Below are positions 42,177-55,241 of a stretch of 64,000 bases of DNA, in pieces. The stretch comes from Longimicrobiales bacterium (lineage in GTDB: Bacteria; Gemmatimonadota; Gemmatimonadetes; Longimicrobiales; Gaopeijiaceae): contig OZ241892.1 in the NCBI GenBank assembly GCA_965203485.1, positions 2,080,001 through 2,144,000 on the forward strand, in the 5' to 3' direction. Within the stretch, counting starts at the first letter, position 1; every line of letters begins with the position of its first letter. The notes under the pieces are model-generated. The model was not told the DNA's origin. It did not search any database and worked only from the letters and a program-made list of their open reading frames with translations. Made by a program: the position numbers and the translations under genes.

Positions 42177-43328
42177 CTAGGCCAGCGCTTCGTGGAGCGC
42201 CGCCGCGATCTCGTCGATCTGCTCCTCCGCGACCACCAGCGGAGGCAGCAGGCGAACGACCGTGGCGCCGGCCGAGAGCGCCAGCACGCCCCGTTCCGCC
42301 AGCGCGGCCACGCACGGACCCGCGCGCTCCTTGAGTTCGACGCCGATCATCAGCCCGATCTGGCGCACCTCGCGCACGCGCCTGGACGGCCGGCGGCCGA
42401 AGCGGTCGAGGAACCGGGCGCCCATCGCCTCGGCGCGTTCGGCCAAGCGCTCCCGCTCCATGCAGGAGATGGCGGCCAGGGCGGCCGCGCAGGCCAGCGG
42501 ATTGCCTCCGAAGGTCGTGCCGTGCTTGCCCGGAGCGCACCGCACGCCTTCTCGGCAGAGCAGCGCGCCCATGGGCACTCCGCCCGCGATCCCCTTGGCC
42601 AGGCAAAGCATGTCCGGGACGACGCCCCAGCGCTCGCACGCGAACATCCTTCCCGTGCGGCAGAAGCCCGTCTGCACCTCGTCGAACGCCAGCAGCGCGC
42701 CGACCTCGTCGCAGGCCGCGCGGGCCGCGCGCAGGAACTCGGGGTGCGCGGGCCGCACGCCGCCCTCGCCCTGCACCGGCTCCAGCACGACGGCCGCCAC
42801 CTCGCCGGTCACGGCCGCCCGCAACGCCTCGGCGTCGTTGAACGGCACGAACGAGAAGCCCGGAACGAGCGGGCCGAACCCGTCGCGGTACGCCTTCCTG
42901 TGGGTCGCGCTCAAGGCCCCCATGGTGCGGCCGTGGAAGCCGCGCATGGCCGCGACGACCCGCGCGCGTCCGGTGTGCAGGCGGGCCAGCTTGAGGGCGG
43001 CTTCCACGGCCTCGGCGCCCGAGTTGCAGAGGAAGGCGCGGGCCAGCCCCCGCGGCGCGATCTCGACCAGCTTGCGCAGCAATGCGGCCCTGCGGTCGTT
43101 GCAGAAGATGCCCGCGCAGGCCACCAGCGCGCGCGCCTGGGCGGCCACCGCCTCGGCCACCGCCTCGTTGGCGTGCCCCACGCTGGCCACGCCGACGCCG
43201 GCGACGCAGTCCAAGTACCGGTTTCCCTCTTCGTCCCAGACTTCGGCCCCGGAGCCCCGGACGAGCGCAAGCCCGCGCTTCGCGAAGACATCGAGCCCAA
43301 AGGCCCGCTCCGTCGCGACGGCGTTCAC
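42177..43328 (-). CDS. lysJ: [LysW]-semialdehyde aminotransferase (class III, LysJ/ArgD)
   Basis: [45 protein letters not shown]; located in the LysW operon. Confidence 0.85.
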
Positions 43329-43425
43329 GGGCCGCCGCAGGGAGCCGGGGGGCTCGCGAAGCCGCCGCGCCCCCGCGCTGCGCCCGTCTGACCGCAGGCG
43401 GCCCGGCACCTGCGAATCTCGGCGC

Positions 43426-44238
43426 TCACGAGATCACCGTGCCCCCGCCGGCAAGCACGTCCCGAACCGGGCGCGCGGCCCGGCCGTCGCCCAGGACGAT
43501 GCGCGCCCCGGTCGATTCCGCCAAGACGCGCAACGCGCGCATCTTGCGCTTCATCCGCCCCTTGGCCTGCTCCTCCCGGCCCGCCAGCTCGGCGCGCGTC
43601 ATTCGCTGGACCACGGACGCCGGATCGCTCGGGTCGTCCAGGAAGCCCGGCGCCTCGATCAGCTGGACCACGCAGTCCACCTCGAGCGCCTTGCCCAGCA
43701 GCGCGACGACATCGTCGTTCTCGGAGTTGACCGCGTAGCCATTCTCGTCGGCGATCGGAACCGTCAGCACCGGCGCGAACCCGCCTTCCAGCAACAGATC
43801 CAACAAGCGTCTGTTGATCGCCGCGGGCTTGCCGGAGAGGTCGCGCTTGATCAGCGTCTTGCCGCCTTCGCGCACGCGGATTCCCTTGTTGCGCCTCCCC
43901 CGCACGACGGCGCCGTCCAGGCCCGTGAGCCCCACGGCGGCGACGCCCCTCACCTGCAGGAGCTCGACCAGCCGCTTGTTGCGAAGACCCGCGTACGTCA
44001 TCAGCATGAGGTCGATCGTCTCGGCGTCCGTGTATACGCTCTCGTAGCCGGAGACCGACGTCAGCGCTTGCTTCTCGATGCCCAGGCGCCGTCCCAGCGA
44101 GTCGCGCAACGCGTTGGCGCCGTGCACGACGACGAAGCGTTCCTGCAGCTCGGACAGGTCCGACGCGATCCCCTCGAGGTTGATCGACTCGCCCCCGCCG
44201 ACCTTCACTAGAATCACCGGCGGGCCCGTGCCGGTCAC
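43426..44238 (-). CDS. lysZ: [LysW]-aminoadipate/glutamate kinase
   Basis: [38 protein letters not shown] overlaps the upstream stop. Confidence 0.88.
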
Positions 44239-44876
44239 AGCGCGATCACGGCGCCGTCGGGAACCCGCGTCCATTCCTCGGCGCTCCCCGGATAGCGTTG
44301 CGAGCAGATCACTTGCGCGGCTCCGAGTCGGGCGCGCCTCATTTGGAAGTAGTCCGGCGACTCGCTGAACCGGCTGGCCGCGTAGACACCGCCGGACGCG
44401 TCGGCGACGATCATGTTCATGGCGCGGACGTGCCGGGTGCGCCTCTCGATGGCCGCGACGCCGCGCCGAAGAGCCGCCGAGAAGTCGTCCCGCCCGAAGC
44501 GCTTGACGAAGTTGAACACCTTCTCGGCGCCGATCCGTCCGCGCTCCCGGATGCGCACGCCGCGCAATTCGCCGTTGAAGACGAACACGCGCTCGCCGTC
44601 GAAGAAGGGCATGTTGTTCTCCAGCCGGATCCCTTCGTTGCGAAACGCGCTGCGGGCGTGGGCGACGAGCAGGGTCGCGCGCCCGGGGGGACGGTACGGG
44701 TCCTCCCACACGGGCGCGAGGCAACGGTAGACGCACCAGCGGCCCTCGTTCAGCCAAGCGCAGCCCCAACCGTGGCCTTGATACTCGCGGCTCTCCTTGG
44801 CGATGCGGGCGAAGGCGGCGAGATGCCCCTCCATGTCGAAGCCCTCCGCTTCGCGAACGCACAGCATGCGGCACAT
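44235..44876 (-). CDS. class II glutamine amidotransferase-like Ntn hydrolase (EgtC/YafJ/DUG3-like)
   Basis: N-terminal M-C-R-M-L nucleophile motif; HGWG, VAHARSA, NNMPF, FVFNGEL. Confidence 0.85.
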   Translation of the reverse strand: MCRMLCVREAEGFDMEGHLAAFARIAKESREYQGHGWGCAWLNEGRWCVYRCLAPVWEDPYRPPGRATLLVAHARSAFRNEGIRLENNMPFFDGERVFVFNGELRGVRIRERGRIGAEKVFNFVKRFGRDDFSAALRRGVAAIERRTRHVRAMNMIVADASGGVYAASRFSESPDYFQMRRARLGAAQVICSQRYPGSAEEWTRVPDGAVIAL

Positions 44877-44886
44877 GCCCGGGACG

Positions 44887-45912
44887 TCAGACGGGGTGGA
44901 GGCCCGCGAACTCCAGGCCCGTGGTCTCGGGGAACCCGTGCATGACGTTGAACGCCTGCACGGCTTGCCCGGCGGCGCCCTTCATCAGATTGTCCAGCGC
45001 GCTGACCACGACGACCCGGTTGGTGCGGGGGTCGCGTTCGAAGCCCACGTCGCAGAAGTTGGCGCCGGCGAGAAGCTTCGGCTCCGGGTAGCGGTGGACG
45101 CCGCCGCGCTCCTTGACGATGCGGACGAACGGCTCGGTCCCGTAGGCGTCGCGGTAGAGCCGCCAGAGCGCTCGGTCGTCCATGTCCCGGTTCACGAAGA
45201 CGTGGCAGGTCGCGAGCACGCCGCGGACCATCTCGACGGCGGTGGCGGAGACGTGGACGTCGTCGAGCCCCAAGGACTGCGCGATCTCGCCGGTGTGGCG
45301 GTGCCCGGTGGGCTTGTAGGACCGCAGGGCCCCGCTGCGCTCGGGGTGGTGGCTGGCGTCGGTGGCCACGCGTCCCGCTTCGCTCGAACCGACCTTGACG
45401 TCGATCACGGCGCGGTCGGCCAGCCCCTCGCGGCACAGCGGCAGAAGCGCGAGCACGGCGGCGGTGGCGTTGCATCCGGCGCACGCCACGAGTTCCGCTT
45501 CCGGCAGGGCGTCCCTGTGCAGCTCGGCGACGCCTCCCGTGAACTGGTCCAGGAGTTCAGGCCGGGGGTGTCGCTCCCCGTACCAACGCTCGTAGGCGCC
45601 GGGAGAGGCCAAGCGAAAGTCGGCGCCCAGATCGACGACGCGGCCGGCGACCCGGCGGACTTCGTCGATCCGGCGCGAACTCTCGCCGTGCGGCAAGCAC
45701 AGAAACAGCACGTCGCACGGGTCGATCTCGTCGGCGGCGGAGAACTTGAGCCCGGAGGCGCCCCGAAGGTTCGGGTGGGCGCCGTGCGCGAACCGGCCGG
45801 CGAGGCGGTTGGACGTGACCTGCTGCACGCGCGCTTCCGGATGGCCCAGCAACAGCCGCAGCAGCTCTCCGCCCACGTAGCCCGAGGCCCCGGCGATGGA
45901 AACGCCGATCAT
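44887..45912 (-). CDS. lysY: [LysW]-phosphate reductase (LysY/ArgC)
   Basis: GASGYVGGELLRLL, DLGADFRL, AGCNATA, SHHPERSG, DNLMKGAAGQAVQ. Confidence 0.9.
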   Translation of the reverse strand: MIGVSIAGASGYVGGELLRLLLGHPEARVQQVTSNRLAGRFAHGAHPNLRGASGLKFSAADEIDPCDVLFLCLPHGESSRRIDEVRRVAGRVVDLGADFRLASPGAYERWYGERHPRPELLDQFTGGVAELHRDALPEAELVACAGCNATAAVLALLPLCREGLADRAVIDVKVGSSEAGRVATDASHHPERSGALRSYKPTGHRHTGEIAQSLGLDDVHVSATAVEMVRGVLATCHVFVNRDMDDRALWRLYRDAYGTEPFVRIVKERGGVHRYPEPKLLAGANFCDVGFERDPRTNRVVVVSALDNLMKGAAGQAVQAFNVMHGFPETTGLEFAGLHPV

Positions 45913-45943
45913 CCCGCTCGCGCCAAGTCGGACGCCCCGCCGC

Positions 45944-46780
45944 TCACGGCGCCTGCGCCAGCGCGTAGGACGCGATCTCGGCGGGGATGTTCACGCCGGT
46001 GACGTCGACGCTGTTCCTGAATTCCATCGTGTAGTTGACTTCGTTGGCGAGCAGTTCGCCGTCCCTCTCCAGCAGATCGACCGCCAGCACGCCGCCGCCC
46101 ACGGCCGCCGCGGCCTGAATGGAGACGGCTCCGATCTCGGCGGTCACCGGACAGTTGGAGGTCCGCCCGCCCCGCGCCGTATTGGTGATCCAGTGGTCGG
46201 ACGCGCGGTAGACCGCCGCGACGCACTCGTCGCCCACCACGAAGCTGCGGATGTCGCGCCCCCGCTTCCTCACGTACTCCTGCACGAAGAAGATCGAGTG
46301 ATGGTAGGTCCCCAAGACCGCCTTGTGCTCGAGCACCGTCTCCGCCGCATCGCGGTCGTTGATCTTGGAAAGCAGCCGCCCCCAGGAGCCGACCGCCGGC
46401 TTCAGCACTACCGGATACCCGAGCTCTTCGATCGCCCGGAGCGCCGACTCCGGCGTGAACGCCACCCGCCACCTCGGCTGCGGGACGCCGGCCTCCGCCA
46501 GGGCCGTGGCCGTCAGGATCTTGTCGCCGCATCGTCGCGCCACGTCGTAGCGGTTGACGCAACGCGCACCCACGCTCTCGAACAGGCGCAGCGCATGCAT
46601 CGCCCGCGAGTGGTTGATGCAGCGCTCGAGCACCAGATCGAAGTCCGGCGGCGAGCCCAGTCCGAAGACCAGCCGCCGGTCGTCCAAGCGCACCAGCTCG
46701 ACGCCCGGGCGGCCCTTCAGCTCGGCAAGGATGAGCTTCTCGTCCTTGCGGATCAGCGAATGCAGGAAGCCGACCCTCAC
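45944..46780 (-). CDS. lysX: ATP-grasp LysW ligase LysX
   Basis: [49 protein letters not shown]. Confidence 0.92.
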
Positions 46781-46874
46781 GCGGCCGCCTCCGGGCCGAC
46801 GGCCGCCCGCCCCAGTCCTCCCCGGCAAGGAGCGCCGCCGCGCCGCCGGGCGAAGCACGCGCCAGTCCCGGCGG

Positions 46875-47039
46875 TCACTCGCCCCAGTCCTCTTCCGCGT
46901 CGGGGGCTTCGGCCAGCGCCGGCGGGTCGAGCGAAAGAACCTCCAGCTCGCATCCGCACTCCGGGCATTCGAGGAGCTCGCCCTCCACCGCGTCTTGCTC
47001 CAGTTGGACCTGCGCTCCGCACACCGGACATTCCGCCAT
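46875..47039 (-). CDS. lysW: amino-group carrier protein LysW (54 aa, absent from the ORF track)
   Basis: MAECPVCG...[11 protein letters not shown]...AEEDWGE: two CxxC motifs and the C-terminal EDWGE. Confidence 0.95.
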
Positions 47040-47223: not shown

Positions 47224-48390
47224 ATGGCCACGGTACGGCCGAACATGAAGAACGATTTTCATCCCTGCACCTTCGCGTCGCCCTTCCTGTGGATGCGCCT
47301 CGTCTGGGAAAACGGCGGCATTCCGCGCCGGTACTGGCGGAAATTCGCGGGCATCCTTGCTTGGTCCGCGCCGTTGGCCCCGTTGCGGCTGGCCGAGTGG
47401 TTGGCGTTCTCGCGGAAGATCGCCAGGACGCCCGTCGACGAGCCGCCGCTCTTCGTCCTGGGCTTCCCGCGCACCGGCTCGACGCACTTGCAGAACTTGC
47501 TCGCCCAGGATCCGCGCTGGGGCTGCTTCACGACCTTTCAGTGCGTGACGGCGCCGTTCTCGTTCGTGGCGCGCGGCCGCCTCAGGCGGCTGATGGAGAA
47601 GGCTATGGCGGCCGCCGGCGAGCAGACCCGGCCGATGGACAACGTCAAGATCACGCTGGACTCGCCGCAGGAGGAGGACGTCGCCGTCGCCGCCATGTCG
47701 CGGCTGTCGGCCGTGCACCAGCTGGCGTTCCCCAAGCGGGGTCGGGAGCTGCTGGCCAAGTACGTGATGATGGGCGCAGGGCCGGACGGGTCTCCCAACG
47801 GCAGCCTGTCGGCGCGAGAGCTACGCCAGTGGGAGCGCGTCTACGTCCGCGAGGTGCGAAAGGTGGTCCTCCACTCCGGCGGCAAGCCCCCGATGCTGCG
47901 CAACACGCTCAACATCGCCCGCTCCGACCACCTGTCGCGCCTCTTCCCGGGCGCCAAGTTCCTCCACATCGTCCGCAATCCGTACGCCGTCTACCCCTCG
48001 GTGCTGCACCTCGCGCGCACGCTGCTGCCGCTGTACCAGCTCGACGACTACGACTGGGACGAAGTGGAGCAGCACTGGATCGACGGGTACAAGCTCCTGA
48101 TGTCCAAGTACATGCGAGACCGCGAGCAGATTCCGGACGGCCACTTCGCCGAGGTGCGCTACGAGGACTTGGACCGCGATCCGCTGGGCGAGCTCGGGCG
48201 GGTGTACGAGGAGCTGGAGCTGCCCGGCTGGCGCGTCGCCCGCGAACGCATCGAGGCGTACCTGGAGACGCTGTCGGGCTACCGCAAGAACCGCTTCACG
48301 CTGCCGCAAGCGACGATCGACCGCATAAGCGACGAATGGGGGTTCGCGGTGGACGCCTGGGCCTACGAGCCGCCGGCGGCGGACGGATGA
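47224..48390 (+). CDS. sulfotransferase family protein
   Basis: [19 protein letters not shown] (PAPS-binding loop), [25 protein letters not shown]. The start could be 47245. Confidence 0.88.
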
Positions 48391-48418
48391 GGCTCTTCGG
48401 CGGACACGGACAGCCGGC

Positions 48419-50401
48419 GTGCTGAGGTTCGCCGAGGAGTTGCTGCTCCTCCTCATCGACGAGGACTCCGGCAACTTGGCGCTCGTGCCCGAGCGCGACT
48501 TGAACCACGCGCTGGCCGGCGCCGCGCTCATGGACCTGGCGCACGAGAACCGGATCGACACGGACCTGCAGCAGCTGACGGTGGTCGATCCCGCGCCGCT
48601 GGGCGACGACGTGCTGGACCCGGTGCTGGCCCGCTTGGCGAAGAGCGCCGAGCCGCGCGCGCCCGAGTACTGGGTGCGGCGCTTCGCGCAGGACGGCGAG
48701 CGCATCCGGGCGTCGTCCCTGCAGCGGCTGGTCGAGGCCGGGATCCTGCGTTCCGCCGACGAGGGCGCGATCGAGACGACGACCAAGGTGGCACGAGCAA
48801 GACGCTACCCGACAGCGGACGGCAAGGCGGAGCAGGAGGTGCGCCTGCGCATCATGGGCGTGCTCTTCAGCGACGACGTGCCCGGGCCCCGCGACGTGGT
48901 GATCATCTGCTTGGCCGACGCCTGCGGCGTCTTCGAGGGCATGCTCGCCAAGGAGGAGCTCGCCGAGGCGCGGGAGCGCATCGATCTGGTGCGCCGTCTC
49001 GACCTGATCGGCCAAGCCGTGACCCGGGCCGTGCGCGATTCCGAGGCGGAGGCCAAGGAGACCCGTCGCCCCCCCCGGTCGAAGAAGCCGCCGATGGCCA
49101 AGGGCCTGCCGTTTGTCGGCAACGTCCGCGAAGCGTCGATCGACTTGGTGCGCTTCCTGGCCGCGCAGCACTTGGAGCTCGGCCCCGTGTTCGAGGTTCG
49201 CATTCTTCGCAGGACGCTTCTCGTGCTGGCGGGCGAGGAAGCGAACCGCTTCGTGAACCGCCAGGGACGGCGCTGCTTCAGCTCGCGAGGGCCGTTTCAG
49301 GGCCTTGCCGAGGGCCTCAATGCGCACAGGATCGTGCTGAACATGGAGGGGCAGGAGCACTTCGCGATCCGCAAGGCGTTCGCCCCTGCGCTGGGCCGCG
49401 CCCGGTTCAACCAGTGCTTCGACTTGGCCAGCGAAGTCGCCCACCGGCAAGTCGTCGCCCTGCCGGTGGGCACGCCCCTGCATCCCTTGCCGTTCCTGCA
49501 GCAGGTCGTCGCCGAGCAGATGGGAAGGATTCTGGCGAACCGGTCGGCCTCCGAACAGGTCGAGGACATGGCGACGATGCTCGACATCCTGTTGAAGACC
49601 AAGGTGACCAAGCAGCTGCCGATGCTGCCCTTCGCGCGCAAGTTCAAGAAGGCGAGCGAGCGCGTGGAGACCGTTGCCCAAGAAATCCTCGATGCCCACG
49701 GGCCGGACGGGCCGCTGCACGACTGCGGCGACTTCATCAGCGACTTGATCGACCTGAACCGCCGGGACCCGCAACTCATACCCGAGACCGACATGAGGGC
49801 CTGGGCGATCGCTCCCTATCTCGCGGGACTGGAGACCGTGGCCAACACTTGCGCCTTCAACCTATACGCCGTGCTGAAGCACCCGGAGCTGAAGGAACGA
49901 GTCGTCGCGGAAGCCGACGCGTTCTTCTCCGGCGAGCCCGCGGCCGAGGGATTGGCGCAACTGGACGTCACGCGTCGCCTGATCATGGAATCGATGCGCA
50001 TGTGGCCGGCGGCCCCGGTGCTCTTCCGGGTCGCGGCCAACTCCTTCGACTTCGCTGGCTACCACGTGCGTGCGGGCACGCCCATGTTCCTTCCGCAGGC
50101 GGCGACCCACCACTTGCCCGAGAACTTCCCCGATCCCGGGCGCTTCGACATCGACCGGTACCTGCCGGACCGCTCCGAGCACCGGCAACCGAATGCCTAC
50201 GTCCCCTACGGCGTAGGCACGCACCGTTGCCTGGGCGCCAGCTTCGCCGATCTCCAGACAATGCTCATCCTGGCCGTCATGATGCGCGCGGCGGACATGG
50301 AGCTCTACCCGCGCGGCTACGATCTCAAGGTGAGCAACGTGCCGACGCCGAGGCCCGCGAAGAACTTCAAGGTCAGGGTGACGAGGCGGCGGGAGGCGTA
50401 A
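48419..50401 (+). CDS. GPP34/GOLPH3-domain-cytochrome P450 fusion protein
   Basis: N-terminus FAEELLLLLID...ALAGAALMDLAHENRID...LQRLVEAGIL. C-terminus GLPFVG, AGLETVAN, ESMR, FDIDRY and heme motif YGVGTHRCLG. Confidence 0.85.
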   Translation: MLRFAEELLLLLIDEDSGNLALVPERDLNHALAGAALMDLAHENRIDTDLQQLTVVDPAPLGDDVLDPVLARLAKSAEPRAPEYWVRRFAQDGERIRASSLQRLVEAGILRSADEGAIETTTKVARARRYPTADGKAEQEVRLRIMGVLFSDDVPGPRDVVIICLADACGVFEGMLAKEELAEARERIDLVRRLDLIGQAVTRAVRDSEAEAKETRRPPRSKKPPMAKGLPFVGNVREASIDLVRFLAAQHLELGPVFEVRILRRTLLVLAGEEANRFVNRQGRRCFSSRGPFQGLAEGLNAHRIVLNMEGQEHFAIRKAFAPALGRARFNQCFDLASEVAHRQVVALPVGTPLHPLPFLQQVVAEQMGRILANRSASEQVEDMATMLDILLKTKVTKQLPMLPFARKFKKASERVETVAQEILDAHGPDGPLHDCGDFISDLIDLNRRDPQLIPETDMRAWAIAPYLAGLETVANTCAFNLYAVLKHPELKERVVAEADAFFSGEPAAEGLAQLDVTRRLIMESMRMWPAAPVLFRVAANSFDFAGYHVRAGTPMFLPQAATHHLPENFPDPGRFDIDRYLPDRSEHRQPNAYVPYGVGTHRCLGASFADLQTMLILAVMMRAADMELYPRGYDLKVSNVPTPRPAKNFKVRVTRRREA

Positions 50402-50452
50402 CGCGCAAGTTGCGACTCGCCGGGTCGGCAAGTACGACGCGCCGGTAGCGCC

Positions 50453-51235
50453 TTGACCGCTCTCGCCAGCCTGACGCCCAGTTCCGCCCTGCGGCGCGCC
50501 GGGTTCCGATTCGGGGATCGCGGAACCCAGTCGAGCCGCAACACGATGCTGGGCGAGTTGCGCGTGCTGTTCGACGCGCTTTCGCCCGACGCAAGCCGCA
50601 CGGACTATGCCGATGCGATGGTTGGCGAAAACGTGTTGGGCAAGCCGACCCTGGCCGCCCGGCGGAGCGTCCGCCAGCGTCTGACCGAGCTGTACGGCCT
50701 GGACCCGAGCCTGCCGTTGTTCCGCGTGTTGCGGCGGCTGTGGGACGCGGACCCGCCGGGACGGCCGCTCCTGGCCATGCTCTGCGCGCTGGCCCGGGAC
50801 CCGTTGTTGCGCTTGACCGCGCCGCCGGTGCTCGGACTGGCCCAAGGGAAGCCGTTGGAGCGATCGGCATTTCTGGCGCACGTCCGGGAAGTGGCCGGTT
50901 CGCGATTCAACGACGCGGTGCTGGCCAAGGTGGCGGCGAACGCGATCCGCTCCTGGCAACTGGCCGGACATTTGAGCGGACGCGCGGGACATCGCACGAG
51001 GCAGATGATCCAGCCCACGCCCGGCGCCGCTGCGTTCGCCTTGTGGATGGGTCAGGCGGAGGGGCTGGCGGGGCTTCCGCTGCTGGACTGCCGGTGGGCG
51101 CCGGTGTTGGACGTTCGGGGCAAGGCTATGCTTGTATGGGCGGTGGAGGCGGGCAGACGGGGGCTGATTCACGTTCGAGCGGCGGGAGACGTCGTGGAAA
51201 TCGACACCACGAAGCTGGACGCGTACGCGCCGTGA
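50453..51235 (+). CDS. brxA: BREX protein BrxA-like
   Basis: ENVLGKPT...RLTELYGLD...ARDPLLR...SWQLAGHLSG; directly upstream of brxB and brxC. Confidence 0.7.
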   Translation: MTALASLTPSSALRRAGFRFGDRGTQSSRNTMLGELRVLFDALSPDASRTDYADAMVGENVLGKPTLAARRSVRQRLTELYGLDPSLPLFRVLRRLWDADPPGRPLLAMLCALARDPLLRLTAPPVLGLAQGKPLERSAFLAHVREVAGSRFNDAVLAKVAANAIRSWQLAGHLSGRAGHRTRQMIQPTPGAAAFALWMGQAEGLAGLPLLDCRWAPVLDVRGKAMLVWAVEAGRRGLIHVRAAGDVVEIDTTKLDAYAP

Positions 51236-51783
51236 GCCAGGTCCGCGACTTGGCCGCGGTCTACAAGCGGCACGTGAGCGCGCCGTGGCCGCGCACGCTC
51301 GCAGGCGCGCAACGCGTAATGATGATCGTGTATCCCAAGGACCGCGAGCGGGCGTTGCGGGCGGCCGTCGGCGAATTCGAGCAAGCCACGGAGGGCGCGG
51401 GCCACGGATGGCGGCTTGTCGATTGCACCGATTGGTTCGCCGAGTGGATGGCTGGGCACGAGTACCGAGAACCGTACTTCGAGGAACCGGAGCTGCTGGA
51501 CGACGCATTGCTGGACCAGGAGTTCCGCAAGGTCGCGTCGGCCCGCTTGGAGAGCGCCTTGAAGGGCGCCGGCGAGAAGACGGTCGTCGGGCTCGTCGGC
51601 GTGGCATCGCTGTACGGCTTCGTGCGCGTGTCGAAGCTGATCCACGACGTCGAGCGGTCCATCGAGGGACGCTTGGCCGTCTTCTTTCCCGGCAGCAAGG
51701 ACGGGAACAACTATCGCCTGCTGGACGCCCGGGACGGCTGGAACTACTTGGCCCAGCCGATCACGCTGGAGGGATGGCCATGA
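51232..51783 (+). CDS. brxB: BREX protein BrxB (DUF1788)
   Basis: GVASLYGF...GRLAVFFPGSKDGNNYRLLDARDGWNYLA; overlaps the stop and start of its neighbours. Confidence 0.85.
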   Translation: MSQVRDLAAVYKRHVSAPWPRTLAGAQRVMMIVYPKDRERALRAAVGEFEQATEGAGHGWRLVDCTDWFAEWMAGHEYREPYFEEPELLDDALLDQEFRKVASARLESALKGAGEKTVVGLVGVASLYGFVRVSKLIHDVERSIEGRLAVFFPGSKDGNNYRLLDARDGWNYLAQPITLEGWP

Positions 51784-54700
51784 GCTCCCCGAAGATCTTC
51801 GAGCTGATGGAACGCGATCCGCGCTCCGAGCAGCTGGCCAACAACGGCCAAGCGCGAATCGCCGGCGACAGCGACGACGAACGCGTGGAACTTCGAGCCG
51901 AGCTGGAGTCCTTCGTGTGCTGCGGCAAGTTCGCCGACGCGTTCGAGACGGTCCTGGACAGGTACTTGGCGAACCTGGGCGCCGCGTCCCGGCAGGACTC
52001 GGTCTGGGTGAGCGGCTTCTTCGGCAGCGGCAAGTCCCACTTGCTGAAGATGCTCGCTCACCTCTGGGCGAACACGCGCTTCGACGACGGCGCGGCGGCC
52101 CGGTCGCTGGTGCCGGGCGGATTGCCTTCGCGCATCCAGGAACAGCTTCGCGAGCTGGAGGTGCAGGCAAAGCGAACTGGCGGCCCGACCGTCGCCGCGG
52201 CCGGCACCATGCTCAGCGGCGCCGCCGACCGGGTTCGGCTGGCGGTTCTGGCCGTCATCCTGCGAGCCCGCGAATGGCCCGAGGACTACGCCCAAGCTCG
52301 GTTCTGCTTCTGGTTGCGCGACGAGGGGCTGCTGGACGATGTCCGGAGCGCAGTGGAGGACGCCGGCAAGGACTGGGGCCGCGAACTCGCCAATCTATAC
52401 GTGAGTCCGGTCGTCGCGGACGCCTTGATCAGGGCGCGCCCCGACTTCGCTGCGGACGCGAGGGCGGCCAAGCAACTGCTGCGCGCGCAATTCGCCCGCC
52501 CGGCAACCGACATCGGAACGGCCGACTTCGTGGCCATGGCCAAGCAGGCGCTCGGGGACCCCGGCGGCCCGCTCCCCCTCGCGATTCTCGTGCTGGACGA
52601 AGTGCAGCAGTACATCGGCGACTCCAGCGACCACGCCGTGGCGGTCACCGAGGTCGCGGAGGCCGTCCAGACCCAGTTCAACGGCCGGTTGCTGCTCGTG
52701 GCGGCGGGCCAGTCCGCGCTCGAAGGGCACCCCTCGCTCCAGTGGCTGAGAGATCGCTTCCGAATCACCGTTCAGCTCTCGGACGCCGAAGTCGAAGAGG
52801 TCACCCGCGAAGTGTTGTTGCGAAAGAAGCCCAGCGCCGCCGCGCCGATCGAGCGCATGTTCGAGGAGCACGCCGGCGAGGTGTCGCGCCAGCTGCAGGG
52901 CACCAAGCTCGGCGTTTCGAGCGAGGACCAGGGCGCCGACGTCGCCGACTATCCCCTCCTTCGAACCCGCCGCCGGTTTTGGGAGGCCTGCTTCCGAGCC
53001 GTGGCCGGCACGCACAGCGAGCTCCGTTCGCAACTGCGCATCCTGCACGACTCGCTGCAACGGATCGCCGACCGAGGCTTGGGGGCGGTCATTCCCGCCA
53101 GCGACCTGTTCGGCGCCCTGACGACCGACTTGGTGAACTCGGGCGTGCTGCTCAACGAAATCGCCACCCGCATCGCCACGCTCGACGACGACACCGACGA
53201 CGGCCGACTTCGACACAACCTTGCCGGGGTCGCCTTCCTCGTCGGCAAGCTGCCCCGCGAGCGCGCCGTGGACCTCGGAGTCCGCGCCGACGCGCGCACG
53301 CTGGCGGACCTGCTCGTCGACGACGTCGCGGCGGACTCCGGCGTCTTCCGCAAGCGCGTGCAGGACGCCTTGGACGCGATGGCGCAGCAAGGCGTCCTGT
53401 TGAAGGTCGCCGACGAGTACCGCATCCAGACCACCGCGGGCGCCGAGTGGGAACGGGCGCTTCGAGAGAGGCGCACTGCCCTCGAACGGGACGAAGGGCA
53501 CATTTCGCTGACGCGCCAAAGTCTGCTGTCCGGAGCCGTCGGCGCCTTGGTCGCGCAGATTCGCTTGCCGCACGGCGAGTCCAAGACCAATCGCAAGCTG
53601 GTCCTCCAAGTCGACACGCTGGGCGAAGACGCGCCCGGCGACACCATTCCCGTGTTGCTCCGCGACGAGTGGTCGTGCAGCGAGCAGGAAGCGAAGAACG
53701 ATGCCCGAAGGCGTGGCATGGAGGATCCGGTCCTGCACGTCTTCCTGCCCAAGCGCAACGCCGACGACCTGCGCCGCCGCATCGTCGAAACCGAAGCGGC
53801 CCGGCAAGTGCTGGACGAGAAGGGCCGCCAGTCCTCGGCGGAAGGCCGCGAAGCGCGCGACGCCATGAAGAGCCGCCGTGCCGGCGCGGAGGCCCGCCGC
53901 GACCACCTCGTCCAGATCACGCTCGCGTCCGCCCGCGTGCTCCAAGGCGGAGGAACCGAGGTCTTTGCCGGAGGCGACCTGAAGGCCAAGATCGAGCACG
54001 GCGCGAAGGCGTCGCTGGCTCGCTTGTTCCCCCGCTTCCCAGAGGCCGACCACCGAGCCTGGGGCGTTGCCCTGAAGCGAGCGCAGGAGGGGTCCGACAC
54101 GCCGTTTCAGGCCGTGGACTGGGACGGTCCGCTAGCCCGCCATCCGGTGGCCAAGGAAGCGCTCGCCGCAGTTGCGACGGGCAGGCGAGGCAACGAGGTC
54201 CGCAAGGCGTTGGCGCGGCCTCCGTTCGGTTGGCCCCGAGACGCCGTGGACGCGGCCTTGGTCGCGCTTCACGGTCTCGGCCAGCTGGCGGCCACCCGCA
54301 ACGGCGCACCTGTGCGGCGCCTGGACCAGACGGGAATCGCGACGACCGTGTTCCGCCCCGAAACGGTCGTCCTCGACGCCAGCCAGCGGATTGCGTTGCG
54401 GGGGCTCTTCCAAAAGGCGGGCGTGGCCTCCCGATCCGGCGAGGAGACGGTAGGAGCCCGGCAGTTCCTCGACGCCTTGCGGACGCTGGCCGCAAAGGCC
54501 GGGGGCGACGCGCCGTTGCCCGCCCCGCCCGACACGGCGTTGCTCGACGAGATTGGTCGGCTGGACGGCAACGAGCAACTGGCCGAGCTCTTCGAGGCGC
54601 GAGAGGGGCTGATCGCGGACATCGAGCAGTGGGAGGGACTCGCCCGGCGTGCTCGGACGCGGACGCCCGCTTGGGACATGGCCGTCGCGCTTCGCCGACA

Positions 54701-55241
54701 CGCTACCGGACTGCCGATCGCGGAGGACGTCGGCGCCGAACTCGACGCCATCGCCGAACGGCGGTCGCTGTTGGACGAGATGGACCCCGTGTCGCCGTGC
54801 GTCGCAAAGCTGGCCAAGGCGCTTCGCGAGGCGCTGGGCAAGGCGCGGGACGGATTGGCCGAGGCCGTCGCCGACGCCACCGCCCGGCTCGACGCCGACC
54901 GTGCCTGGTCCGAGTTGGACGACGCAGATCGCGCGGCCATATTGTCGGATGTCGCCTTGGCCACCCCCGTACCGCTCGCCGTAGAGACCGACCCGGCGTT
55001 GCGGCGGGAACTGGACAGGCGCAACTTCGCCGCTTGGCGCGCGGAGACCGACGCCGTCTCGTCCCGAGAAGCCGAGGCGCTGGAAGCGGCAACGGCCCGT
55101 CACGGAGAAGGCAACGTACCCGTCGCGGTCGCTGTCCGCCGAGCCACTCTCGCGAACGAGACCGACGTGCGCCGCTGGCTCGACGAGCACGAGACGAAGC
55201 TGATGGAGGCGGTCAAGAAAGGAACGGTGGTGGTGAAATGA
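51780..55241 (+). CDS. brxC: BREX P-loop ATPase BrxC
   Basis: VWVSGFFGSGKSHLLKML (Walker A), LVLDEVQQYIG (Walker B), LRDRF, PPFGWP; 1153 aa. Confidence 0.9.
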   Translation: MSSPKIFELMERDPRSEQLANNGQARIAGDSDDERVELRAELESFVCCGKFADAFETVLDRYLANLGAASRQDSVWVSGFFGSGKSHLLKMLAHLWANTRFDDGAAARSLVPGGLPSRIQEQLRELEVQAKRTGGPTVAAAGTMLSGAADRVRLAVLAVILRAREWPEDYAQARFCFWLRDEGLLDDVRSAVEDAGKDWGRELANLYVSPVVADALIRARPDFAADARAAKQLLRAQFARPATDIGTADFVAMAKQALGDPGGPLPLAILVLDEVQQYIGDSSDHAVAVTEVAEAVQTQFNGRLLLVAAGQSALEGHPSLQWLRDRFRITVQLSDAEVEEVTREVLLRKKPSAAAPIERMFEEHAGEVSRQLQGTKLGVSSEDQGADVADYPLLRTRRRFWEACFRAVAGTHSELRSQLRILHDSLQRIADRGLGAVIPASDLFGALTTDLVNSGVLLNEIATRIATLDDDTDDGRLRHNLAGVAFLVGKLPRERAVDLGVRADARTLADLLVDDVAADSGVFRKRVQDALDAMAQQGVLLKVADEYRIQTTAGAEWERALRERRTALERDEGHISLTRQSLLSGAVGALVAQIRLPHGESKTNRKLVLQVDTLGEDAPGDTIPVLLRDEWSCSEQEAKNDARRRGMEDPVLHVFLPKRNADDLRRRIVETEAARQVLDEKGRQSSAEGREARDAMKSRRAGAEARRDHLVQITLASARVLQGGGTEVFAGGDLKAKIEHGAKASLARLFPRFPEADHRAWGVALKRAQEGSDTPFQAVDWDGPLARHPVAKEALAAVATGRRGNEVRKALARPPFGWPRDAVDAALVALHGLGQLAATRNGAPVRRLDQTGIATTVFRPETVVLDASQRIALRGLFQKAGVASRSGEETVGARQFLDALRTLAAKAGGDAPLPAPPDTALLDEIGRLDGNEQLAELFEAREGLIADIEQWEGLARRARTRTPAWDMAVALRRHATGLPIAEDVGAELDAIAERRSLLDEMDPVSPCVAKLAKALREALGKARDGLAEAVADATARLDADRAWSELDDADRAAILSDVALATPVPLAVETDPALRRELDRRNFAAWRAETDAVSSREAEALEAATARHGEGNVPVAVAVRRATLANETDVRRWLDEHETKLMEAVKKGTVVVK

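Follow-up and report, generated by a model that had tools for sequence, protein, structure and literature searches.

The window analysed here is a 64,000-nucleotide stretch of the genome of a Longimicrobiales bacterium (assembly GCA_965203485.1, contig OZ241892.1, positions 2,080,001 to 2,144,000 of the forward strand; GTDB lineage Gemmatimonadota; Gemmatimonadetes; Longimicrobiales; Gaopeijiaceae). The genome is a single contig and is 95% complete. Six genes lie on the minus strand of the window in the order given by the initial annotation, lysW-lysX-lysY-[213-aa ORF]-lysZ-lysJ (Table 1). We consider the fourth of them, an open reading frame (ORF) for a protein of 213 amino acids (aa). We propose, with a probability of about 0.85, that this EgtC-fold protein replaces LysK, hydrolysing the gamma-glutamyl bond by which the carrier protein LysW holds the completed product, probably lysine, on its terminal Glu. 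The operon position, the fold model, the residue conservation, the exclusion with LysK and the pattern of Gln-ending carriers were computed here; from these we infer the enzyme activity, the binding of LysW, the independence of metal and the product.

Table 1. Features of the lysW operon and its upstream neighbourhood (positions within the window)
Feature	Position	Strand	Evidence and remarks
lysW, amino-group carrier protein, 54 aa, C-terminus EDWGE, net charge -16	46875-47039	-	TIGR01206 68.6 bits (cut-off 53.2); PF21344
lysX, ATP-grasp ligase loading the amino acid onto LysW	45944-46780	-	TIGR02144 325 (cut-off 275.6); aligned to 3vpd; start read from the junction sequence
lysY, reductase, sole argC-like gene in the genome	44887-45912	-	TIGR01850 372.5 (cut-off 233.6)
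213-aa class II N-terminal nucleophile (Ntn) cysteine amidohydrolase, proposed LysK replacement	44235-44876	-	Cys2, Arg75, Asn101-Gly102 retained; Gly116 where Asp is usual
lysZ, [LysW]-aminoadipate kinase, start 44238 or 44217	43426-44238	-	NF010659 231.1 (cut-off 223)
lysJ, class III aminotransferase, final gene of the cluster, no lysK after it	42177-43328	-	best model NF042418; TIGR00707 above cut-off
upstream of lysW: presumably a sulfotransferase-like ORF, a cytochrome P450-like fusion ORF and candidate bacteriophage exclusion (BREX)-type defence genes	47224-55241		labels suggested by the translations

The lysW, lysX, lysY and lysZ genes pass their NCBIfam cut-offs. The best model for lysJ, LysJ_Th_th (NF042418), scores 459.7 bits, below its cut-off of 700. 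The junction sequence agrees with the start initially described for the 213-aa gene: its ATG follows the lysY stop after 10 bp, and the product begins MCRML. The overlap described at the other end stands insofar as the TGA of the ORF shares bases with a GTG of the lysZ frame. As a lysZ start, however, the second GTG, at 44217, is no worse and agrees better with where the homologues begin, and hence the overlap may not reflect the true start. In the public gene call the 213-aa protein (P0002) begins only with Met15. The catalytic Cys2 is thereby lost, which may be part of the reason that the protein stayed unnamed.

The 213-aa ORF has no match in Pfam and one weak match in NCBIfam, to the EgtC model TIGR03442 (35.4 bits, cut-off 218.65), so that membership in the EgtC family was rejected. 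No M20 metallopeptidase match was found in either collection, and the fold is of the Ntn type. Thus the protein belongs to neither the LysK nor the EgtC family. The AlphaFold2 model, built with 55 sequences, has a predicted local distance difference test (pLDDT) score of 91. In the Foldseek comparison with the PDB the ten top hits are EgtC structures (template modelling (TM) scores 0.78–0.82, 18–20% identity), followed by 1te5, GlmS, 3mdn, PurF and GFAT. Model and comparison together display the four-layer Ntn fold of the class II glutamine-amidotransferase-like hydrolases. The likeness to EgtC noted initially therefore holds for the fold, whereas at the level of the family score it is distant.

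The search of 1.84 billion cluster representatives with the 213-aa family yielded 115 at E up to 1e-30. The diverged set comprised 151 sequences, 103 of them full length; 85 of these start with MC, and many of the other 18 resemble alternative start calls. Met1-Cys2-Arg3 is invariant in all 55 close members. In the 85 diverged ones Cys2 (partly by selection), Arg3, Trp57, Arg75, Asn101, Gly113 and Gly116 are invariant, Gly102 and His73 are retained in 83 and 84, respectively, and position 119 is always Lys or Arg. The catalytic Cys, Arg and Asn-Gly align to those of GlmS and PurF. In the available text of PMC7000685, Cys2, Asn123 and Gly124 of GFAT-1 are catalytic and Arg95 lies in the Glu pocket; via the GlmS alignment these correspond to Cys2, Asn101, Gly102 and Arg75 of our protein. 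The fold and the catalytic residues, as modelled, fit a gamma-glutamyl amidase with a Cys nucleophile, and such an enzyme would be independent of metal.

Gly116 aligns to the Asp of the T/S-D-[ST]-E motif in GlmS, PurF, a YafJ-like protein and PDB entry 3mdn, with profile match probabilities that are weak for GlmS (21%) and PurF (50%) and high for the YafJ-like protein (99%). The 213-aa family, with Gly at this position in 85/85 members, lacks the Asp of the class II amidotransferases. We take this Asp to bind the free alpha-amino group of Gln, although no paper confirming it was found. Judging from the alignments, its replacement by an invariant Gly fits a changed substrate, namely a Glu that has its amino group engaged in a peptide bond, like the one that ends LysW. 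The net charge of the protein is +9 (family median +3), against -16 for LysW.

EgtC cleaves a gamma-glutamyl amide. Its structures (PDB 4zfj, 4zfk, 4zfl) have in common with the 213-aa protein a stand-alone class II Ntn fold, the N-terminal Cys, GWG, W57, R75 and NG. The differences are the identity of about 19%, the location in a LysW operon and not among egt genes, and the proposed substrate, a protein-bound Glu. GlmS/GFAT, PurF and the YafJ-like/GATase_4 proteins (3mdn, 1te5) agree with the 213-aa protein in fold and in the catalytic residues Cys, Arg and Asn-Gly, but the latter carries no synthase domain, unlike GlmS/GFAT and PurF, and its family has I/T-G-A-[EQ]-K in place of T/S-D-[ST]-E. 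Since EgtC, 3mdn and 1te5 are nearest in fold and profile, one may think of a small-molecule gamma-glutamyl amidase or glutaminase of the EgtC/DUG3/YafJ type whose presence in the operon has some other cause, for instance nitrogen supply. We consider this highly improbable and the least likely of all readings: the EgtC score is 35 bits against a cut-off of 219, no ergothioneine (egt) gene occurs among 34 annotated representatives of the conserved neighbours, an invariant Gly stands where the free-amino-acid motif has its Asp, and the exclusion with LysK, described below, would be left unexplained.

The genome collection contains 148 relatives, the nearest of which come from Longimicrobiales (Gemmatimonadota) assemblies, and the linkage to the LysW operon was assessed in the best 80 of them. 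In all 80 loci the gene is immediately preceded by lysY and immediately followed by lysZ; lysJ is present in 79, lysX in 78 and lysW in 76. These loci come from the Gemmatimonadota, the Acidobacteriota, the Pseudomonadota and one deltaproteobacterial assembly. Farther out, the gene neighbourhood differs between these groups. As the block of six genes is constant and its surroundings vary, the block moves as a unit. Thus the expected co-occurrence of the family with lysW clusters is borne out. Among 18 Acidobacteriota genomes with the family, twelve have the gene between lysY and lysZ, three have it after lysZ-lysJ, in two it lies at contig ends, and one has a 5'-truncated match beside a recombinase. 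The subfamily directly following lysJ (three Acidobacteriota genomes and two metagenome loci) occupies the slot that lysK has in most LysK operons seen.

The search of longer proteins for fusions gave five matches, three with LysZ, one with LysY and one in an unrelated chimera. We read the four fusions to lys genes as frameshift artefacts, since they are single-member clusters with out-of-frame stretches or a shifted junction; they are evidence of adjacency only.

LysK was identified by the family model TIGR01902 with the cut-off of 163.1 bits. The best score in the source genome is 64.5, and four control genomes pass; the ten M20 (PF01546) matches of this genome all lie outside the window, in agreement with the initial statement that neither the operon nor the window has an M20 peptidase. 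The genome-wide search covered 50 of the 80 carrier genomes, and none has LysK above the cut-off (best 83.5). In 301 genomes of the same phylum there are 28 strong matches to the 213-aa family, all in genomes without LysK, and three further, weak matches to this family; two genomes have LysK and not the 213-aa gene. The LysZ-type kinase, counted at at least 200 bits, a threshold placed in the score gap between 205 and 180 in these genomes, is found in 30 of them, which are exactly these 28 and two. One genome, G087, has the canonical lysW-X-Y-Z-J-K. Among 281 Acidobacteriota genomes 18 have the 213-aa family, 17 have LysK above the cut-off and none has both. For the metagenomes, a scan with the LysW C-terminus as its anchor gave 120 of about 4100 stretches, ten with the 213-aa gene, 19 with LysK, none with both and 91 with neither, in most cases owing to their short length. 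Taken together, a candidate release enzyme was seen in 94 genomes or loci, and in 56 of these it is the 213-aa family (28+18+10 versus 2+17+19). One of the 18 Acidobacteriota genomes, G496, is flagged as unpublished; leaving it out lowers the count to 17 and does not alter the outcome. The flagged genomes G105, G145, G205 and G230 contribute solely to the totals of the LysZ-type kinase and of the aconitase-like gene considered below.

Hence the family and LysK are mutually exclusive in the two phylum samples and in the metagenome sample, as the initial annotation had anticipated. The proposed reaction and substrate are those of LysK (M20, a homologue of ArgE/DapE; TIGR01902, NF003367), the operon is the same and, in one subfamily, so is the slot. 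At that, LysK is a metallopeptidase of about 370 aa, whereas the 213-aa protein has an unrelated Ntn fold with a Cys nucleophile, and the two do not co-occur in any genome or locus examined. By analogy, the protein likely works like LysK through EgtC-like chemistry. The suggestion of a non-orthologous replacement of LysK is supported by the genomics (0/50 for LysK, 80/80 for the linkage, the exclusion) and, within the limits of modelling, by the fold and the residues.

Several observations weigh against the replacement. The LysX tree (48 rows) requires just three label changes, and a single origin is possible; the samples are not independent, and the exclusion pattern, as read from the sequences, goes back to few swaps that left many descendants. 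Since every genome is a metagenome assembly, absence means only that the gene was not found. The ten M20 matches in the source genome are other hydrolases of this family, potentially promiscuous, and one of them is ArgE/DapE-like (193.6 bits, cut-off 217.6). Finally, distant members of the 213-aa family (P0159, P0193, P0287, P0293, P0329, P0362, P0368) are named from Woesearchaeota, Dojkabacteria, Gottesmanbacteria and Microgenomates. These lineages are usually poor in amino-acid synthesis.

The carriers themselves differ between the two kinds of operons. LysW ends in Gln in 14 of the 97 operons with the 213-aa gene (4/76 genome loci, 2/10 metagenome loci and 8/11 Acidobacteriota loci) and in none of the 36 with LysK (0/2, 0/19 and 0/15). 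Seven more Gln-ending carriers are on short contigs; the nearest lysX is in the 213-aa-gene class for six of these and one is unplaceable, the classifier by nearest lysX being correct in 28 of 29 leave-one-out cases. On the LysX tree the Gln-ending carriers occupy five separate places. This pattern could be read as maturation or repair being the only function: LysW-Gln, encoded as such or produced by mis-loading of ammonia, would be deamidated to LysW-Glu, and the product would be released by a general M20 peptidase. Glutamine hydrolysis is indeed the ancestral reaction of the fold according to the accessible part of PMC7000685, and other M20 hydrolases are present in the source genome. On the other hand, 83 of the 97 carriers, including that of the window, already end in Glu and the gene is kept, hence maturation of Gln is not its sole job; moreover, the absence of LysK from every carrier genome and the occupation of the lysK slot would remain without explanation. 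We therefore regard maturation alone as very unlikely.

If the 213-aa protein is the release enzyme, the reaction could proceed as follows. Met1 would be removed, exposing Cys2, which would attack the gamma-amide of LysW-Glu54-Lys, with Asn101 and Gly102 forming the oxyanion hole and Arg75 holding the terminal alpha-carboxylate of LysW. Lysine would depart, and water would free LysW-Glu for reloading by LysX. Gly116 instead of Asp would leave room for the LysW chain. A terminal Gln could be converted to Glu by the same chemistry, and, as we propose, this conversion would be the reason why Gln-encoded carriers are tolerated in operons with the 213-aa gene. The broader statement, that the LysW pathway has a second, metal-free end in several phyla, with one Cys Ntn enzyme performing both the release and the maturation of Gln carriers, we favour by a narrow measure.

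Ntn enzymes pass through a covalent acyl-enzyme, so that transfer is chemically open as well as hydrolysis. ArgJ does an analogous transfer with acetyl groups. In a transamidase the LysW-gamma-thioester would be passed not to water but to a new aminoadipate or glutamate, merging release and reloading into one step without ATP, and carriers ending in Gln would have a direct entry. But lysX is retained in 78 of the 80 loci and in every complete operon seen, and a second, acceptor-binding domain is not seen in the 213-aa model, which makes such an enzyme highly improbable. Transfer of LysW directly to new aminoadipate as an addition to hydrolysis, giving an ATP-saving cyclic carrier pathway, is quite unlikely.

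The released amino acid may be lysine or ornithine, and the release chemistry is identical for both. The specificity motif of LysX, scored in 77 loci, is F-I-T-NS in 60 and F-V-T-NS in 17; the LysX of the window has F-V-T-NS, of the aminoadipate type. As far as the available text of PMC12998189 goes, Thermus LysX has F-I-T-NS and ArgX has I-Y-V-GF. A homocitrate-synthase-like gene, below all family cut-offs, lies within the operon in L090, G164, five of ten metagenome loci and 11 of 16 Acidobacteriota regions. The Acidobacteriota carriers (n=7) all lack dapB and six have a second argC, which points to lysine.

The evidence to the contrary is as follows. The motif did not govern LysX specificity in Natrinema (PMC10433800, in the part available), dapB is present in 33 of 49 carrier genomes, and lysY is the sole argC-like gene in 26 of 28 Gemmatimonadota carriers. 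In the source genome lysA, dapF, argF and argG are above their cut-offs, an argH-like gene is beside argG, lysY and lysZ are the sole argC- and argB-like genes, and no homocitrate synthase above the cut-off was found (best 188, cut-off 413.55); homocitrate synthase, homoaconitase and homoisocitrate dehydrogenase are represented there by candidates below the cut-offs. The lysA, dapF and arg genes prompt the explanation that ornithine is the only product. This explanation is weakened by the LysX motif of the aminoadipate type, by the synthase genes within the operons of relatives and by the source genome itself, where, despite lysA and dapF, no dapB and no dapA above the cut-off were found. In terms of the gene content, the product of the operons with the 213-aa gene is probably lysine, and a dual role for lysine and ornithine may be possible in the source genome.

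Some details of the source genome may be added. The pattern of lysA and dapF without dapB and without dapA above the cut-off (G000:C1 1633066-1634415, 1996506-1997348, 2911175-2915026) is common to G298 and G007 as far as searched. The sole gene of the LeuA/homocitrate-synthase family encodes 415 aa (L179:2794-4038, that is, G000:C1:2056793-2058037) and is below all cut-offs; in G106 its homologue is two genes away from a gene of the isocitrate/isopropylmalate-dehydrogenase family. A 703-aa protein of the aconitase family (L190:3213-5324, G000:C1:3264212-3266323), also below all NCBIfam cut-offs, has a small-subunit-like domain fused ahead of the large one. This fused gene resembles a homoaconitase but was dropped as support for an aminoadipate supply in the source genome: it is present in 152 of the 301 phylum genomes, compared to 30 with the LysW kinase, and hence is not tied to LysW.

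In the literature found, as far as its available text goes, the LysW/ArgW route is described as ending with an M20 enzyme, LysK/ArgE, and the accessible portion of the 2026 GapMind preprint (10.1101/2024.10.14.618325) names neither LysK nor an amidotransferase. No description of an Ntn or class II amidotransferase release enzyme for LysW was found in the literature searched, which included few subscription journals and no supplements; the impression of the initial annotation that this pathway variant had not been described is in line with this. Compared to the LysW/ArgW pathways of Thermus, Sulfolobus, Thermococcus and haloarchaea, the lysW, X, Y, Z and J genes are all recognisable here, while the last enzyme is probably swapped and some relatives encode a carrier with a terminal Gln. 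If our prediction is true, the last enzyme of a known pathway has a non-orthologous replacement, and a pathway gap would be closed in many uncultured members of the Gemmatimonadota, the Acidobacteriota and the Pseudomonadota, which would otherwise pass for auxotrophs. There would also be a class II Ntn hydrolase whose substrate is a gamma-glutamyl isopeptide bound to a protein, and the "invariant" Glu at the carrier end could start out as an encoded Gln that is corrected later.

The operon is also carried by marine Pseudomonadota (L080, L082, L086-L089, L091, L092), and most of the searched genomes of this group also have dapB; here it may serve the salvage of aminoadipate. In L089 lysJ is not next to the cluster. 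In G336 (L186:9453-11468) lysZ and lysJ share a single reading frame of 672 aa, which is either a true fusion or an assembly error.

Many operons with the 213-aa gene have a divergent gene of about 215 aa just upstream of lysW, a candidate amino-acid-sensing regulator (L183:6315-6965, L185:3857-4495, L186:5753-6391, L375:3464-4120, L377:8055-8711). It was searched for in the source genome and not found there. Two of the three copies scanned have weak matches to DUF7523. In the Acidobacteriota this gene is present in eight of 16 regions with the 213-aa gene, compared to none of 18 LysK regions.

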